Part shown: piece after piece, positions 291 to 27,372 of the stretch
Position numbering within the stretch: the stretch's first letter is position 1
Layout of the letters: every line of letters begins with the position of its first letter
Source: Candidatus Latescibacterota bacterium
GTDB lineage: Bacteria > Krumholzibacteriota > Krumholzibacteriia > WVZY01 > JAKEHA01
Length of the DNA: 64,000 nucleotides
Reading direction: 5' to 3'
NCBI GenBank assembly: GCA_963707635.1
Contig: OY970173.1
Span: 1,664,001 to 1,728,000 of the forward strand
Position numbers and translations under genes: made by a program
Notes under the pieces: model-generated
The model's database searches: none
Told to the model about the DNA's origin: nothing
The model's input: the letters and a program-made list of their open reading frames with translations, nothing else

Positions 291-388
291 TGCGGGGTAG
301 TTGAGTGGCACAACGCCGGGTAGTTGAGTGGCACAACGCCGCACTGTTAATGCGGATATCGGAGGTTCGAATCCTCCCCCCGCAGCCA
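291..388 (+). tRNA. tRNA-Asn(GTT) with a 23-bp internal tandem duplication
   Basis: Acceptor TGCGGGG/CCCCGCA, anticodon arm CCGCA-CTGTTAA-TGCGG, T arm GGAGG-TTCGAAT-CCTCC, G discriminator plus CCA. GGGTAGTTGAGTGGCACAACGCC occurs at 295-317 and 318-340. Confidence 0.85.
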
Positions 389-3449: not shown

Positions 3450-3544
3450 GGGAATGGATGGGCCCTGGTGGACCTCGGGGACTTCAAATCCCTTAGTCGG
3501 GCGAGACCGTCCGAGGTGGGTTCGATTCCCACACATTCCCGCCA
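3450..3544 (+). tRNA. selC: tRNA-Sec (UCA)
   Basis: GGGAATGG...ACATTCCC-G-CCA extended acceptor, anticodon arm GGGGA-CTTCAAA-TCCCT, long variable arm TCGGGCG-AGAC-CGTCCGA, T arm GTGGG-TTCGATT-CCCAC. Confidence 0.92.
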
Positions 3545-19050: not shown

Positions 19051-20861
19051 CCAGGAGAACAAAGATGAAGGTGGCGAAGGGAACCAGCACGAAAGCGGCG
19101 GCCGCTGCGACGCCGGATCGTTTCGACGACGTGCTCGAAGACATCCGTCGGATCGCGGAGGACAAGGGCTTCGTTCTGAACCACGAGATCGACTCGCTGG
19201 TGGGGGACGACTTCACGCCCGAGGACATCGTGGTCCTGTACGATCGTTTGAGCGAGGAGAAGATCGACTTCTTCGACTCGCCGGAAAAGGCGCGTCTCAA
19301 AATCGACGCGCGCAAGCGCCGCGAGGAGAAGGAAGAGCAGAAGACCGAAGAGGAAGTCAAGGCGGTCATCCGCTACGACGACCCCGTGCGCATGTACCTG
19401 CGCGAGATGGGGAAGGTGCCGCTGCTCGACCGCGAGGGCGAAGTCGAGATCGCCAAGCGCATCGAGCAGGGCCAGATCCTGATCGCGAAGGCGGTCTTCT
19501 CGCTGGATTCACCGGTGCGGGAGCTGCAGAGGCTCGCGCGGACCGTCGAGAAGGGCGACATGCGTCTCGACGAGGTGGTGCAGGTGGAGACGGGCGGGAT
19601 CGCCCCGTCGGCCACCGGCAAGAAGGAGCGCCAGATGCGCTTCCGCCCGGTCAAGAAGATCGCGGCGTTGCGCAAGGAGATCGTCGAGGTCCAGAAGAAG
19701 CTCAAGCTCAAGAAGAACACGACCAAGCGGCCGGCGCTGGAGCGCTCGCTCGAACTGCGCCAGGCGAAGCTCTTCGAGGAGTACATCAAGCTCCAGCTCA
19801 ATCCGAAGCAGCTGGAGCGCATCGTCGAAAACATCCGCGTCACCCGCGACCGGCTCAAGGATTACGAATCGAAGCTCGGCGAGTACGAAGAGTTCGTCGG
19901 GCTCACCTACGACGACATCCTCGCGCACGTGAAGAAGCTCAAGGGCGGCTCGCGCCGGCGTAACGTCAAAGTCGACGGCAAGGGGATGTGGTCGCTCGAG
20001 ATGCTGGAAGACTTCGAGCGCAAGATGCGGGCGTTGCGCGCCGAGATCAAGGAGATCGAGAAGGAAGAGAACATCTCGATCAAGGATCTCGACAAGATCG
20101 TGGACAGCATCCGCAAGGGTGAGATCCAGGTCCAGCGCGCCAAGAAGGAGATGATCGAGGCGAACGTCCGTCTCGTCATCGCCATCGCGAAGCGCTACAC
20201 CAACCGCGGGCTCGAGTTCCTCGACCTGATTCAGGAGGGCAACAGCGGGCTCATGCGCGCGGTCGACAAGTTCGACTACCGCAAGGGCTACAAGTTCTCC
20301 ACCTACGCGACGTGGTGGATCCGCCAGGCCATCACGCGCGCGATCGCGGACCAGGCGCGCACCATCCGCGTGCCCGTGCACATGATCGAGGCCATCAACA
20401 AGGTCTCCCGCGCGCAGCGCAAGCTCGTGCAGGAGAACGGCCGCGACCCGACCCCGGAAGAGGTGGCGAAGAAACTCGACTACCCGCTCGACAAGGTCAA
20501 GAGTGTGATGAAGGCGAGCATGGAGCCGATTTCGCTCGACCGGCCGATCGGCGAGGACGAGGACTCCAACCTGTCCGACTTCATCGAAGACACGTCGGCG
20601 GCTTCGCCCGCGCAGTCGGCGTCCCACGCCATGCTGCGCGACCAGCTCAACCGCGTGTTGAGCACGCTCACGCGTCGCGAGGAGAAAGTCATCCGCCTGC
20701 GCTTCGGCCTGGGGGATGGAACGCCGCGCACGCTGGAAGAGGTCGGCACGATCTTTAATGTCACGCGCGAGCGCGTGCGTCAGATCGAGGCGAAGGCCCT
20801 GAAGAAGCTCCAGCACCCGAGCCGGGCGCGAAAGCTCAAGGGCTACACCGAGATCATATGA
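19047..20861 (+). CDS. rpoD: RNA polymerase primary sigma factor
   Basis: [43 protein letters not shown]. Confidence 0.98.
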
Positions 20862-20867
20862 TCGATT

Positions 20868-20900
20868 GTCGGGCGTCGACGCGAGTGGTCGACGCCCGAC
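20868..20900 (+). terminator. Hairpin downstream of rpoD (possible terminator)
   Basis: 13-bp stem GTCGGGCGTCGAC/GTCGACGCCCGAC; no U tract. Confidence 0.55.
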
Positions 20901-20963
20901 GCGCTCCCTCCAAGTTCGACGTCTCCACGCCACGATTGCGCAGGGCCCACGCGTTAAGGATGT

Positions 20964-20993
20964 TTGACGCCAGGGCGAACGTCGGGGTATGCT
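20964..20993 (+). promoter_or_regulatory. Sigma70-type promoter of the intron-containing tRNA
   Basis: TTGACG-18 nt-TATGCT, ending 10 nt before the tRNA 5' end. Confidence 0.65.
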
Positions 20994-21034
20994 CCGGCGA
21001 CAGGGCCCATAGCTCAGGGGTTAGAGCAGCCGGC

Positions 21035-21412
21035 TCAACGCAGTGAATCTAAGTTGAGACGAGGGTTGTGTAGCTCGGCGTGGCAGTTGTGACAGACTAG
21101 AATGCACTTGTGCACCTCCGCCAACACTGAATCCAGCTTTCGGTTGGAGAGAGATCGTATGTCCAACTTGAAATGCTTCTTCTTGGCGCCAGGGGTGTGA
21201 TGAAAGGCGAGCGCGGCCAGGTTCTTGTTGTATCCGCAAATCGAGCAGCGACCGCCCGCCTTCTTGACTAGTTCGAGCTTTCTAGCCAGTCCTCGCCGCT
21301 GTTGTGCTGCGTAACTCTGATGGTGGTCGTTCTTGCAGGGAATCGAGCAGAATCGAGATTGCCGGCCTCGCAGACGGGCACCGCACACGATGCAGTTAGA
21401 CTTAATGGTCAT
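21035..21412 (-). CDS. Intron-encoded Zn-finger HNH endonuclease (putative homing endonuclease), antisense to the intron
   Basis: 125 aa with CIVC-x-FCSIPC, then CSICG...FHH...KCILVCHNCHAELH. AT-richer than the flanking genes. Confidence 0.85.
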   Translation of the reverse strand: MTIKSNCIVCGARLRGRQSRFCSIPCKNDHHQSYAAQQRRGLARKLELVKKAGGRCSICGYNKNLAALAFHHTPGAKKKHFKLDIRSLSNRKLDSVLAEVHKCILVCHNCHAELHNPRLNLDSLR

Positions 21413-21639
21413 AACTGTAATCTACGCTCAATATGATTTGATTGCCAAGGGCTGCCTGGCGAGTAATCGCCAGGGCATAGCCTGCCAAACTCGGGGAAGC
21501 CTAAATCGAGTGACACGGTAATCCCGAGCCAAGCTCCGTCAGGAGAAGGTGTAGAGACTAGACGGCAGGCACCCCACGGGGGTGAAGGGATAGTCCAGCC
21601 CACGAACTCGAAAGGGGCAGCGAAAGCTGTCGTGGGACG
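21036..21639 (+). mobile_element. Group I self-splicing intron (IC3-like) inserted after U33
   Basis: IGS GGGCTG at 21449-21454 pairs with exon CGGCT through a U-G wobble. P2 CCTGGCGA-GTAA-TCGCCAGG; P3 GCCTGCC/GGCAGGC; P AAACTCGGGGAA; Q AATCCCGAGC; R GTAGAGACTAGA; S AAGGGATAGTCC; terminal G at 21639. Confidence 0.93.
21419..21448 (-). promoter_or_regulatory. Putative promoter of the antisense HNH gene (leaderless)
   Basis: Minus strand reads TTGGCA-18 nt-TAGATT-6 nt-ATG; no room for an SD sequence. Confidence 0.55.
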
Positions 21640-21765
21640 CATAACCGGTCGCGCCCAGGTTCAAATCCTGGTGGGCCCACCAAGTTCCAGTCGCAGAGAG
21701 TTGAGCGTGCACTTCGGCACGTTGGTTGACCATATCGGAGGGAGCCACGCCGGCAGCGGCACACC

Positions 21766-22482
21766 ATGACCGACCTCCGCCGCGACATCAGCCTCTTTGT
21801 CAGCGTGGCCCGCATCGAAGCGGCGCTGCACGCGAACCACGTCACCCTCCAGAGACTGCCGCAGGAAATCGCCGCGATCGATAGCGCCCTGGCCGCGCTG
21901 GAGGCGAAGGAGAAGGCGTCGCACGCGGCGTTCGAGGAGATGCAGAAGCGGCGGCGCGAGGTGGAGCGGCTGATGCGCGAGCACGAAGATCACCTGCGGA
22001 AGTGCCGAGGCCAGCAGTCCCTGGTCAAGACCAACGAAGAGTACACCGCCATGCTCAAGGAGATCGCTCAACTCGAGCAGTCGATTTCCAACGACGAGGA
22101 GCAGATCCTCGTCCTCATGGATCAACTCGAACACGCGCAGCGCGAAGCCGCCGGGGCGACGGAGCTGTACCAGATCGAGCACGCGCGGCGCACGAAGGAG
22201 CGGCAAGCTCTGGAGGCGCAGGCGGAGTCGCTCGCGGGTGAGACCGCCCGCCTGACCGCGGAGAGGCCGCGAATCCTCGCCGAGATCACGCCGGCGCTCG
22301 TCAAACGCTACGAGCGCGTCGCCGGAAAGCACCGCGACGTCGCGGTCACGCGGGTCGAAGCGGAGCACTGCGGCGCGTGCCGCCAGCAGCTCCCGCCGCA
22401 GGTCGCGGTCGAGGTGCGCAAGAACGATCAGTTCCTCACCTGCCCGGCCTGCGGGCGCATCCTCATCCACTATGCAGATTGA
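21766..22482 (+). CDS. Coiled-coil C4-type zinc ribbon protein (DUF164/CT398-like)
   Basis: Long coiled coil followed by CGAC...CPACGRIL. Confidence 0.9.
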   Translation: MTDLRRDISLFVSVARIEAALHANHVTLQRLPQEIAAIDSALAALEAKEKASHAAFEEMQKRRREVERLMREHEDHLRKCRGQQSLVKTNEEYTAMLKEIAQLEQSISNDEEQILVLMDQLEHAQREAAGATELYQIEHARRTKERQALEAQAESLAGETARLTAERPRILAEITPALVKRYERVAGKHRDVAVTRVEAEHCGACRQQLPPQVAVEVRKNDQFLTCPACGRILIHYAD

Positions 22483-23118: not shown

Positions 23119-23490
23119 CGGTCCGAGCGGGCGAGATGATCGCGGGCGGCTGCGCGCCGCTCGAGGAAAGTCCGAGCACCACGGAGCGGGATGCTGGATA
23201 ACGTCCAGCGGAAGCGATTCCAGGGAAAGTGCCACAGAAAACATACCGCCTACTCCCGGGCAACCGGGACGGCAAGGGTGAAAAGGTGAGGTAAGAGCTC
23301 ACCGGGCTTCCGGCGACGGCGGCCGTCATGGTAAACCCCATCCGGTGCAAGACCAAATAGGAGAGCAGAGGCGCTCCGCCTCAGTATGACTCTCGGGTTG
23401 GTTGCTCGAGGTGTCCGGTAACGGACATCCCAGACAAATGATCATCCTCCTTCGGGAGAACAGAACTCGGCTTATGTCCCGCTCGGACCG
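23119..23490 (+). ncRNA. rnpB: RNase P RNA, type A
   Basis: GAGGAAAGTCC, GAAAGTGCCACAGAAA, GGTAAACCCC and ACAGAACTCGGCTTA conserved blocks; P1 CGGTCCGAGCGGG/CCCGCTCGGACCG. Confidence 0.96.
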
Positions 23491-23498
23491 CTTTCTTG

Positions 23499-25212
23499 AT
23501 GAACAAGTACCGGTGGCTGCGCAACGATACGATCGATGAGGGAGCGGCGAGCGTCCTCGCCGCCGAGCTCGCGATACCGGCGGCCGCCGCGCGTTTCCTG
23601 GTCGGACGATCGATCAGCGATCCGGCCGCCGCGCACGAGTACTTTCAGCCCACCCTCGAGCACACCCACGACCCGTTTCAATTCGAGCGCATGCGCGAGG
23701 CCGTTGCGCTGGTCCAGGCGGCGGAGCGGGACGCGCAGGTCGTGCTCGTGCACGGCGACTACGACGTCGACGGCATCTCCGGCGCGGCGCTCCTGTATCA
23801 CTTTCTTGAGCGGGGCCTTTGCCACCGTGCTGCGGTTCGTGCCCGACCGGCGCCGCGACGGCTACGGCGTGGCGGAGCGCGCGATCGAGTGGGCGATCGA
23901 GCAGAAAGTCGGGCTGTTCATCGCGGTCGACTGCGGCACCTCGGACGCACCGCGTCTGCGCCGGCTCGAAGCGGCCGGCATCCGTGTGATCGTGTGCGAC
24001 CATCACCAGCTCCCGGTGGACGGCGACGTGGCCGGCGTGCTGTTGAACCCGGTGCGGCCGGGAGAAACCTATCCATTCCCGTCGCTGTGCGGAACCGGCG
24101 TCGCGTACAAGCTCATTCAGGCGCTGGCCGCGTCCGGGTTTCGCGGCGCGACCGAACCGGAGTCGCTCCTGGACCTGGTCGCGCTGGCCACGGTCGCCGA
24201 CATGGCGCCGCTGGTCGGCGAGAACCGCTACTTCGTTCGCGCGGGGCTTTCGAATATCAACCGCGCGCCGCGTCCCGGCCTCGAGGCGATCCGGAACCTC
24301 GCGCGACTGTCCGGCAGCGTGATCACCTCGCGGCACCTCTCGTTCGCGTTCGCGCCGCGCTTGAATGCGCCCGGCCGCGTGTCGCGGCCGAAGCCGTCGC
24401 TCGAAATCCTGTGCGCGGGGGTAAAGGAGCGCGCGCTCCAGCTCGCCGCGATCCTCGAGGAAGAGAACGACCGACGCCGCACGCTGACCGAACGCGTACA
24501 GACCGAGGCGATCGCCGCCATCAACGGGATGCCGGACCGCGGCGAGCGCGGCGGATTCGTGCTGGCGAGCGACGCGTGGAACGAAGGCGTGCTCGGCATC
24601 GCGGCGGCGCGGCTGGTCGAGCAGTTCGGCCGGCCCGCCATCCTCATGAGCCCGAGCAACGGGCTGCTCAAGGGCTCGGGGCGCAGCATTCCGGGGGTCA
24701 ATCTCAAGGAACACCTCGACCACTTCCAGCACAGATTGATTCGCTACGGCGGCCACGCGGGCGCGGTGGGTCTCACCATGGAGCCGGCGGAGCTGGATCG
24801 GTTCGCGGTGGATTTTTCCGACCGGCTGCGCGAAGTGCTTCCGCCCGGGAGCGGCGTCACCCTGACGATCGACGCGGAGCTCACCATCGCCGAGTGCACG
24901 CTCGAACTCGTCGACGTGCTCGCGCGGTGCGAACCGTTTGGCGCCGGCAACGCCGAGCCGGTGTGGATGCTGCGCGACGTCCAGATAGCGCGCGACACGT
25001 CGCTGGTGGGAGACGGTCATTTGAAACTGTTCTTCTTCGACGCCACCGGCGCGCGCGCGTCGGCGATCGCGTTCGGGTGGGATCGCCCGCAATCGCCGGA
25101 GGACCTGCACGGCCGCTCCCTGGATCTCGCGGTGACGCTGCGCAAGACCACCTACCTCGGAACCGCGTACCCGGACCTCCGCATCGTGGACCTGCGCGAG
25201 AGCGGGGCCTAG
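23499..25212 (+). CDS. recJ: ssDNA exonuclease RecJ, frameshifted near 23805
   Basis: HGDYDVDG in ORF 23496. DCG, DHH, ATVAD, PRLNAPGR, GSGRS and GGH in ORF 23536..25212. Confidence 0.92.
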
Positions 25213-25669: not shown

Positions 25670-26261
25670 ATGAACCCGTTTCTCTCCCCGGACCAGCAGC
25701 GCGACCTCGTGCTCGCGTCGCGTTCGCCCCGCCGCGCGGAGATCATGCGCGGCCTCGGGCTCGAGTTCGAGGTCGAGCCGGCGCCGGAGCACCTCGAAGA
25801 CGACGTGACGCACGACGACCCCTTCCTGCTCCCCGGATTTCTGGCCGCGCGCAAGTGCGAGCACGTCGCCCGCCGGTGGCCCCAGCGCACCGTGATCGCG
25901 GCGGACACAGTCGTGATCGTGGACGGCGACGTCCTCAACAAGCCCGGCGAGCGACGAGCAGGCGCGCGAGTTCCTGGCGCGACTCGCGGGCCGCGCGCAC
26001 GATGTTGTCACCGCGGTCGTGATCCGCGGGGTCGCACGCCGCGTCACCGTGGCCGGCAGCGAGCGGACCCGGGTGACGTTCCGCGCGTTGAGCGCGGAGG
26101 AGATCGCGGCCTACGTGACCACGGGCGAAGGGCGCGACAAGGCGGGGTCGTACGCGGCGCAGGGCCTCGGCGCCGGGTTGATTCGTTCGATCGACGGGTG
26201 CTTTTTCAACGTCGTGGGGCTGCCGGTGTCGCTCCTGCTCGACTTGCTCAAGAGGACCTGA
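25670..26261 (+). CDS. maf: Maf nucleotide pyrophosphatase, frameshifted near 25943
   Basis: LASRSPRR and AADTVV...KP in the first frame; DKAGSY and NVVGLP in the second. Confidence 0.9.
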
Positions 26262-26262
26262 A

Positions 26263-27372
26263 ATGCCAATTGAGATCCTGCCCACCGTGCGACTCGTGCG
26301 GGGAAAGCTCCGCATCATCGACCAGACTCTGCTGCCCGCGCGCTACGAGATCCGTGACATCGGCCGCGTCGACGACGTGTGCGAAGCGATCCTCAACCTG
26401 CGCGTTCGCGGCGCTCCCGCGATCGGCGTAGCCGGCGCGTACGGCGTGCTGATTGCGATCGAAGAGTGGTCGCGGGAATGGGTGTTCGATTCGGCGGTTG
26501 GCACTGCCCGCACGAGCGCGCAGGTGCGCCCCGAGCACGCGGGCACCCGCCTCCCGACGCTCGACGAGCTGCGCGACACGCTCGAGCGCGCGGCGGCGCG
26601 GATCGTGATGACGCGCCCGACGGCGGTGAATCTGTCGGCGGCGCTCGAACGCATGCGCCGGGTGTGGCTGCAGGACGGAGAGGTGACGGCGACACTGCTC
26701 GAACTGGTGCGCGAGGCGGATGCCATCCTGGAAGAGGACCTGGCCATGTGCGCGGCGCTCTCCGCGCACGGGTCGGGGCTGATCGCGGACGGCGACGCCG
26801 TGCTGACGCACTGCAACACCGGCGGGCTCGCGACCGGCGGGGTGGGGACGGCGCTGGGAGTCGTCTTTGCGGCCGCCGGCGCGGGCAAGCGCGTCCGTGT
26901 CTACGCGGACGAGACCCGGCCGCTCCTGCAGGGCGCGCGCCTGACCGCGTGGGAGTGCCGGCGCCAGGGCGTTCCCGTCACCGTACTGGTGGAAGGCGCC
27001 GCGGCGTCGCTGCTCGCCGCGCGCGGCGTGGCGTGCGTGGTGGTGGGCGCCGACCGCATCGCCGCCAACGGCGACACCGCCAACAAGGTGGGGACCCACG
27101 CGCTCGCCATCCTGGCGCGCCGCTTCGGCGTCCCGTTCTACGTCGCGGCGCCCTCGACTTCCATCGATGCGTCGCTCCCCGACGGCGCCGGGATTCCGAT
27201 CGAGCAGCGCGCGGGCGATGAAGTCACGTCCTTTGCCGGCACACCGATCACGCCCGAGGGCGTGGATGTCTACAACCCGGCGTTCGACGTGACGCCGGCG
27301 GAATTGGTCGACGCCATCGTGACCGAACACGGCGTGCACCGCCCGCCGTTCCGGTTCGGGATACCGGCGTGA
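26263..27372 (+). CDS. mtnA: Methylthioribose-1-phosphate isomerase
   Basis: VRGAPAIG, RPTAVNL, THCNTG, ETRPLLQG, NKVGT, NPAFDVTP. Confidence 0.95.
   Translation: MPIEILPTVRLVRGKLRIIDQTLLPARYEIRDIGRVDDVCEAILNLRVRGAPAIGVAGAYGVLIAIEEWSREWVFDSAVGTARTSAQVRPEHAGTRLPTLDELRDTLERAAARIVMTRPTAVNLSAALERMRRVWLQDGEVTATLLELVREADAILEEDLAMCAALSAHGSGLIADGDAVLTHCNTGGLATGGVGTALGVVFAAAGAGKRVRVYADETRPLLQGARLTAWECRRQGVPVTVLVEGAAASLLAARGVACVVVGADRIAANGDTANKVGTHALAILARRFGVPFYVAAPSTSIDASLPDGAGIPIEQRAGDEVTSFAGTPITPEGVDVYNPAFDVTPAELVDAIVTEHGVHRPPFRFGIPA

Follow-up and report, generated by a model that had tools for sequence, protein, structure and literature searches.

What interrupts the tRNA gene that follows rpoD in a Candidatus Latescibacterota bacterium, and what might depend on removal of the interruption? 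The gene lies on contig OY970173.1 of assembly GCA_963707635.1, within positions 1,664,001-1,728,000; these 64,000 nt are the window analyzed here, the genome carrying it is labelled G000, and coordinates are window positions unless labelled otherwise. The gene order is dnaG-rpoD and then the split tRNA gene, and E. coli ileX lies directly after dnaG-rpoD-mug. The 5' exon (21003-21035, plus strand; sequence reading, ARAGORN, and exon comparison) holds positions 1-33 of a tRNA-Ile2(CAU) and ends on U33, and the 3' exon (21640-21682, plus strand; sequence reading and ARAGORN) holds positions 34-76, from the CAU anticodon to the encoded CCA. ARAGORN in intron mode returned exactly the 21003-21682 gene, with a 604-nt intron at 33/34 and a full cloverleaf, in agreement with an initial annotation that had given these exon borders, a 604-nt insert ending in G, and the U33 site. 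That annotation also held that standard annotation misses the tRNA, which is borne out for default ARAGORN and the Rfam tRNA model, neither of which detected it, but not for ARAGORN in intron mode, which finds the gene and labels it Met, the program not separating CAU isotypes. Alternative ARAGORN calls that gave homologues as Leu(CAA/CAG/UAA) were set aside, since U-1, omega-G, and a complete anticodon stem come together in no phase but 33/34, and a split tRNA-Arg(UCG) called elsewhere in the genome was discarded as false, with no RF00028 match there.

A sigma70-type host promoter for the pre-tRNA is predicted downstream of rpoD (20964-20993, plus strand), purely as a consensus match (9/12, 18-nt spacer). 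Two promoter-like sites occur in 20800-21800 (shuffle mean 0.2), this one before the tRNA and one on the minus strand belonging to an HNH gene described below. The window also holds a class A RNase P RNA (23124-23489) and a tRNA-Sec (3450-3544). The recJ-like (23496-25212) and maf-like (25670-26431) genes, identified by eye, each appear split over two frames, which suggests indel errors or pseudogenes.

The initial annotation regarded the insert (21036-21639, plus strand) as a group I intron, and the search that it proposed supports this, with an Rfam RF00028 match at 21436-21613 of 52.9 bits (E 1.4e-10), above the gathering threshold of 50. The ribozyme core (21456-21636, plus strand; RF00028, mapping, and covariation) runs from P2 to P9.1, with P2 (GUAA loop), P3, P4, P5, P6, P6a, P7, P8, P9.0, P9, and P9.1 all mapped; P7 is formed by 21554-21560 with 21591-21596 and contains both the bulged A and the G site's G-C pair. 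In an alignment of 42 rows (41 distinct homologous cores, selected by length from the 74 loci described below), 95.4% of cells kept the core pairing and both sides had changed in 29 of 52 pairs, although the structure came from the window's own sequence, which is somewhat in its favor in the pairing count. None of 500 shuffles reached the observed values, and slid controls paired at 30-50%.

Upstream of the core, an internal guide sequence (21449-21454, plus strand; guide-sequence search and precursor fold) forms P1 by pairing 21450-21454 with C29-U33, including U33.G at G21450, and this helix appears when the entire precursor is folded to minimum energy. The same fold (z -2.9, 20 shuffles) contains a long P1 extension that shuts off the insert, its 5' strand at 21040-21058 and its 3' strand at 21427-21445 (both plus strand; pairing across loci and precursor fold). 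The guide sequence was located in 69 of the 74 loci by a locator that demanded a G-run, so that the count of U.G pairs is partly by construction; in 68 of these 69, native pairing of the P1 extension exceeded the cross-locus mean. P10 amounts to a single base pair, in the window and in 65 of the 69 loci. Omega-G was found in 74/74 distinct loci, with that base left free in the search pattern. With a P3-P9 core carrying the P7 G-binding site, U(-1).G in P1, and a terminal omega-G, 21036-21639 (RF00028, ARAGORN intron mode, homologous loci, and covariation) is a group I intron, one that likely self-splices. We take it to resemble subgroup IC3.

Whether splicing matters to the cell depends on the identity of the tRNA. 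According to the part of Silva et al. 2006 (PMC1635315) consulted, G3/C70 marks Ile among CAU tRNAs, where C4-G69 and C5-G68 are frequent. The joined exons carry all three pairs as well as A73, and G3-C70 recurs in 73 of the 74 distinct homologous loci, at positions left free in the pattern. Against E. coli ileX the joined exons show 17 differing positions and against metT 27; the count is 27 for the Met and 34 for the fMet of this genome, and 2 for the intron-less allele of the congener G009. The Ile2 identity proposed in the initial annotation thus rests on these pairs, on greater nearness to ileX than to metT, and on the linkage to rpoD that ileX shares. If the host were instead an elongator tRNA-Met, AUA decoding would be independent of the intron. 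The Met label from ARAGORN fits such a reading, which we nonetheless consider very improbable given the three stem pairs, the distances, and the rpoD linkage, and because the genome's two other CAU tRNAs are a separate elongator Met with C3-G70 and an fMet with a C1 mismatch. The elongator tRNA-Met gene stands directly before tilS, elsewhere in the genome.

The tRNA is thus read as Ile2, and it appears to be the only one. ARAGORN finds 46 intact tRNAs in the genome, a single contig of 3.2 Mb with 96% completeness; two of them are CAU genes, and neither a UAU tRNA nor another Ile2 gene was found in it; each exon of the split tRNA occurs in one copy. The conjecture that this is the sole Ile2 gene, raised in the initial annotation, therefore holds in this assembly, where the other CAU tRNAs are Met and fMet and a UAU gene is absent. 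ATA codons number 911, in 630 of 1519 long ORFs of a heuristic ORF set. Because the split gene is the sole Ile2 gene, Met and fMet account for the remaining CAU tRNAs, and the genome has tilS, AUA decoding probably hinges on removal of the intron.

These observations also bear on the reading of the tRNA as a pseudogene and of the intron as defunct or an artifact of assembly. The RF00028 score is barely above gathering, a congener (G013) carries a deleted version of the gene with no replacement visible in the stretch examined, and the apparent frameshifts in the neighboring recJ and maf hint at assembly indels. Nevertheless, every core helix is intact and covarying, this single contig, 96% complete, offers no other Ile2 or UAU tRNA for the 911 ATA codons counted, and an independent DNA run (X1) yielded near-identical pieces spanning both intron junctions, so that we regard a dead or artifactual intron as extremely unlikely. 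Among seven RNA runs, there was no exon-exon joint assignable to this organism and no circle junction. Exon-exon joints in metatranscriptome contigs were rejected as splicing evidence, as their letters differ and their source is the intron-less tRNAs of other organisms.

Within the likely self-splicing intron, loop L1 carries, antisense to the tRNA, a 125-aa ORF for a likely zinc-binding HNH-type endonuclease (21035-21412, minus strand; homologues, PHROGs, Atlas, and model). The initial annotation, in its reading of this loop of about 400 nt, had overlooked the antisense gene and its promoter. Homologues comprised 357 clusters among 395 candidates, the best 120 being 66-78% identical; PHROGs HNH families were matched at E 6e-19 and 4e-17, and the top Atlas match was 'HNH endonuclease family' (0.97). 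Two Cys clusters and the His residues are invariant in 46 sequences, with H71, H72, C107, C110, H111, and H115. A Pfam search of the ORF gave no HNH match, and a sequence search for solved HNH structures reached E 0.057 at best. When compared with solved structures for the beta-beta-alpha-metal fold, the AlphaFold model (pLDDT 85.5) returned HNH nucleases as the top Foldseek rows, the best at E 0.2 and none at E<=0.001. A median dN/dS of 0.11 across 13 unsaturated pairs, the window's gene being in none of them, indicates that the HNH gene is under purifying selection in the family.

The gene's stop codon consists of U33 and the first two intron bases, overlapping the 5' splice site, and the stop overlaps U33 in 43 of the 61 loci with a scorable intact ORF (13 of the 74 fall outside this scoring); its last codons double as the 5' strand of the P1 extension. 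A predicted sigma70-type promoter (21419-21448, minus strand; consensus motif and conserved position) has its -35 at 21448-21443 and its -10 at 21424-21419, and its spacer and -35 region overlap the 3' strand of that extension. In 45/61 loci a sigma70-like promoter has its -10 ending exactly 6 nt before the ATG, versus 152/35,800 background positions; the family consensus has one well-kept position at which the window's own -10 deviates. Because of the 6-nt distance the mRNA is predicted to be leaderless, and the simplest reading of the motif is that the HNH gene is expressed from a convergent, leaderless antisense transcript.

The start region of the HNH gene (21410-21418), when read as plus strand, agrees with the six bases that open the 3' exon, a likeness conserved in most homologues, with at least 4 of 6 bases matching in 49/61 loci. 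No covariation of the start region with the exon was found at positions 40-42 across homologous loci. The likeness is to the target's 3' half, and use of the region as an autorepression operator is a doubtful proposition; an insertion relic or a leaderless-start constraint are other candidate readings of the likeness.

The initial annotation implied that an Ile2/U33 intron is a rarity, an implication weakened by the presence of at least 74 distinct loci in several phyla. We examined 102 loci found through the protein (20 from GTDB genomes, the best 80 of 451 metagenome loci, and 2 that ranked highest among 80 viral loci) with patterns that demanded U33 and a CAU start of the 3' exon. Both exons flank the antisense ORF in 83 of the 102, giving 85 loci with the window and the congener G003, 74 of them distinct. 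The 19 misses comprise 12 contig ends, 2 ORFs in sense orientation in tRNA-Asn introns, 4 free-standing copies, and 1 distant locus. The loci come from Chloroflexota, Patescibacteria, and metagenomes, with named hosts that include Anaerolineae, Thermoflexus, Gracilibacteria, and other Patescibacteria. The window HNH is 73-74% identical to Anaerolineae and metagenome copies, whereas among 208 genomes in its own phylum just two, G000 and G003, have a close HNH, a patchy distribution that fits mobility. The combination of Ile2/U33 intron and HNH gene is a real and widespread element, and probably a selfish one.

Relatives of the nuclease also occur outside this setting. Of the free-standing copies, one (L093) retains the leaderless-type promoter and has no intron, another (L023) lies directly before an intron-split tRNA-Asn, and a viral copy (L106) is convergent to an intact CAU tRNA; these and L098, also free-standing, are possible precursor or escape states. 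In G000 itself, a group I intron of 242 nt with no ORF (95.5 bits) interrupts a canonical-looking tRNA-Asn(GUU) (C1:245982-246298, minus strand) at 35/36, and the same intron in the genome G001 carries a sense-strand relative of the HNH, 41% identical. The sole intact tRNA-Asn(GUU), at window 314-388, has non-standard pairs at 1-72 and 4-69 that make it atypical, and for this reason Asn decoding may also need the intron-split gene. A third group I intron of the genome (C1:1538472-1539124) apparently lies in a 23S rRNA gene and has a 138-aa sense ORF, which by motif we presume to be a LAGLIDADG endonuclease.

Such copies bear on whether the nuclease drives mobility or is a passenger, that is, a tRNA-associated cassette with its own promoter that was inserted into an intron that splices and does not drive its homing, for instance because it nicks elsewhere or is silent here. 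A passenger might be expected from the wider HNH family in phages, whose members are free-standing near tRNA genes (a tRNA at 64/80 viral loci, at <=300 nt in 59, figures that carry no background control), from close copies with no intron or tRNA nearby (L093 and L098), from distant members in sense orientation in tRNA-Asn introns, and from HNH-less alleles. The purifying selection on the HNH speaks against it, as does the retention of the same insertion site across phyla. The phage relatives, moreover, are found most often by Asn, Ile, and Met tRNAs, all of which have the U36-A37-A38 motif. Protein and ribozyme distances are also in step (Mantel rho 0.75, reached in 0/499 permutations), a correlation over 60 loci whose kin are not independent and which kinship alone can partly explain. 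We therefore judge a passenger improbable and favor a nuclease that acts in homing.

The initial annotation had proposed looking for intron-minus alleles of the rpoD-adjacent tRNA in relatives, and these are common in the genus, where 10 of 17 genomes are intron-less. Two of the others have the intron with the HNH (G000 and G003), one has an HNH-less intron of 251 nt (G010), one is deleted, and three are undecided. The deleted allele (G013:C5:390171-390382) is an rpoD-linked Ile2 gene that lacks U33 together with the first two thirds of the intron, and is either a pseudogene or an assembly error. Near-identical HNH-less contigs in three RNA runs from two studies (X11-X13) indicate that the ORF is optional, although splicing is not thereby demonstrated. 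As all states of the cycle occur within one genus, homing is directly testable there.

A survey of relatives with a U33-intron pattern gave 17 matches, 9 of them chance-like by inspection, and the remainder being 4 Ile2 and 4 fMet U33 introns. The fMet introns (L198, L199, L200, and L201) occur in four relatives of the same order, have cores 70-74% identical to that of the window, and carry full sense-strand PF11645 PD-(D/E)xK ORFs in G024 and G033 and remnants in G019 and G028, a pattern that we interpret as a parallel homing cycle. In a ribozyme tree, the fMet cores form a separate clade (100/100); since the tree's backbone lacks resolution, we claim no donor or order of events.

Taken together, the locus very probably holds a likely self-splicing U33 intron in the sole predicted tRNA-Ile2(CAU) gene. 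The first loop of this intron encodes, antisense to the tRNA, an HNH protein that likely acts as a homing endonuclease. Transcription from the promoter after rpoD would yield a precursor of about 680 nt, in which the P1 extension would loop out a 370-nt insert, U33.G would define the 5' site, and omega-G with P9.0 the 3' site. Guanosine-dependent splicing would then join the exons, a step whose structural basis is supported by covariation and whose chemistry is presumed from what is known of group I introns, and TilS would modify C34 so that the tRNA reads AUA. A separate mRNA, convergent, antisense, and leaderless, would likely supply the nuclease, as the conserved promoter motif predicts. 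The HNH protein would cleave or nick Ile2 alleles that have no intron, close to the anticodon, and the intron would spread through repair templated by the copy that bears it; the HNH gene may later be lost while the intron persists or decays, states of the kind observed in relatives.

In its wider form, the interpretation is one that we lean towards with some reserve: a previously undescribed, cross-phylum family of mobile tRNA-Ile2 introns, in which a convergent, leaderless antisense transcript expresses the homing nuclease, the P1 extension by the guide sequence also serves as -35 and spacer of the promoter, and the splice site itself supplies the stop codon. The same HNH clan, that of phage tRNA-cluster nucleases, would have entered tRNA-Asn introns independently and in sense orientation, and sister fMet U33 introns would carry an unrelated PD-(D/E)xK nuclease. 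Decoding of AUA, a probably essential function, would be made dependent on a ribozyme with a selfish gene; a separate antisense and predicted leaderless transcript would be a bacterial answer to the problem of expressing an ORF inside a non-translated RNA; and the 125-aa protein would be a very small candidate site-specific nuclease with a predictable target. Because default tRNA callers miss such genes or call them Met or Leu, genomes can wrongly seem to have no Ile2.

Among known systems, the closest in site is the tRNA-fMet intron of Synechocystis PCC 6803, class fMet.2Ug, which encodes I-Ssp6803I (Williams 2020, bioRxiv 10.1101/2020.01.27.920355; available part of PMC3073962). It shares with the window intron a CAU tRNA host, insertion after U33, and an endonuclease ORF in P1. 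The window intron differs in having an Ile2 host and an HNH rather than a PD-(D/E)xK nuclease, so that it does not belong to the I-Ssp6803I type, and its ORF is antisense, has its own predicted promoter, and does not intrude into the core. The fMet introns of G024 and G033 likewise differ from the window in encoding PF11645 in sense. The Azoarcus intron, as described in the part of PMC13168695 consulted, resembles that of the window in its Ile2 host, compact core of about 190-205 nt, and P1 extension, but is inserted after U36 (position 5; Ile2.5Ug), is 205 nt long, and has no ORF. The tFind catalogue recognizes 21 classes of tRNA group I introns (4 classical, all IC3, and 17 new) and notes that introns longer than about 400 nt may contain ORFs (Williams 2020). 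In its nomenclature the window intron would be Ile2.2Ug, with U-1 and omega-G in a bacterial anticodon loop as in the catalogue. The classical sites summarized in the initial annotation accord with that source, which lists fMet.2Ug and Ile2.5Ug; the combination of Ile2 host and U33 site that it put forward as new is real, but its novelty is weakened, because those 17 new classes may already include the site.

The text of Williams 2020 describes no ORF family, orientation, or promoter, unlike the analysis of the window. An antisense HNH in a tRNA-Ile2 intron was not described in the literature searched, which covered the main text of Williams 2020 and passages of PMC11835236, PMC3984707, and PMC3428280. 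I-DirII of Didymium, in a nuclear rDNA group I intron, offers a parallel in being a homing endonuclease gene antisense to the host RNA with its own promoter (PMC3073962; see also PMC9548176). Such nuclear rDNA genes are eukaryotic, of the His-Cys type, expressed from Pol II promoters, and located in rRNA introns, whereas the window counterpart is a bacterial HNH with a sigma70-like promoter and predicted leaderless start in a tRNA intron. Among phage nucleases, T4 SegB is free-standing in a tRNA cluster and, unlike the window HNH, is a GIY-YIG enzyme (PMC2330249, part consulted). The HNH families PHROG 2255 and 3106 are associated with tRNA regions and belong to the same broad protein family as the window HNH, which is embedded in a chromosomal tRNA intron, unlike these free-standing phage-cluster nucleases. 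The lasting interest of the locus lies in its antisense nuclease cassette, which is more distinctive than a combination of site and host that has probably been catalogued.
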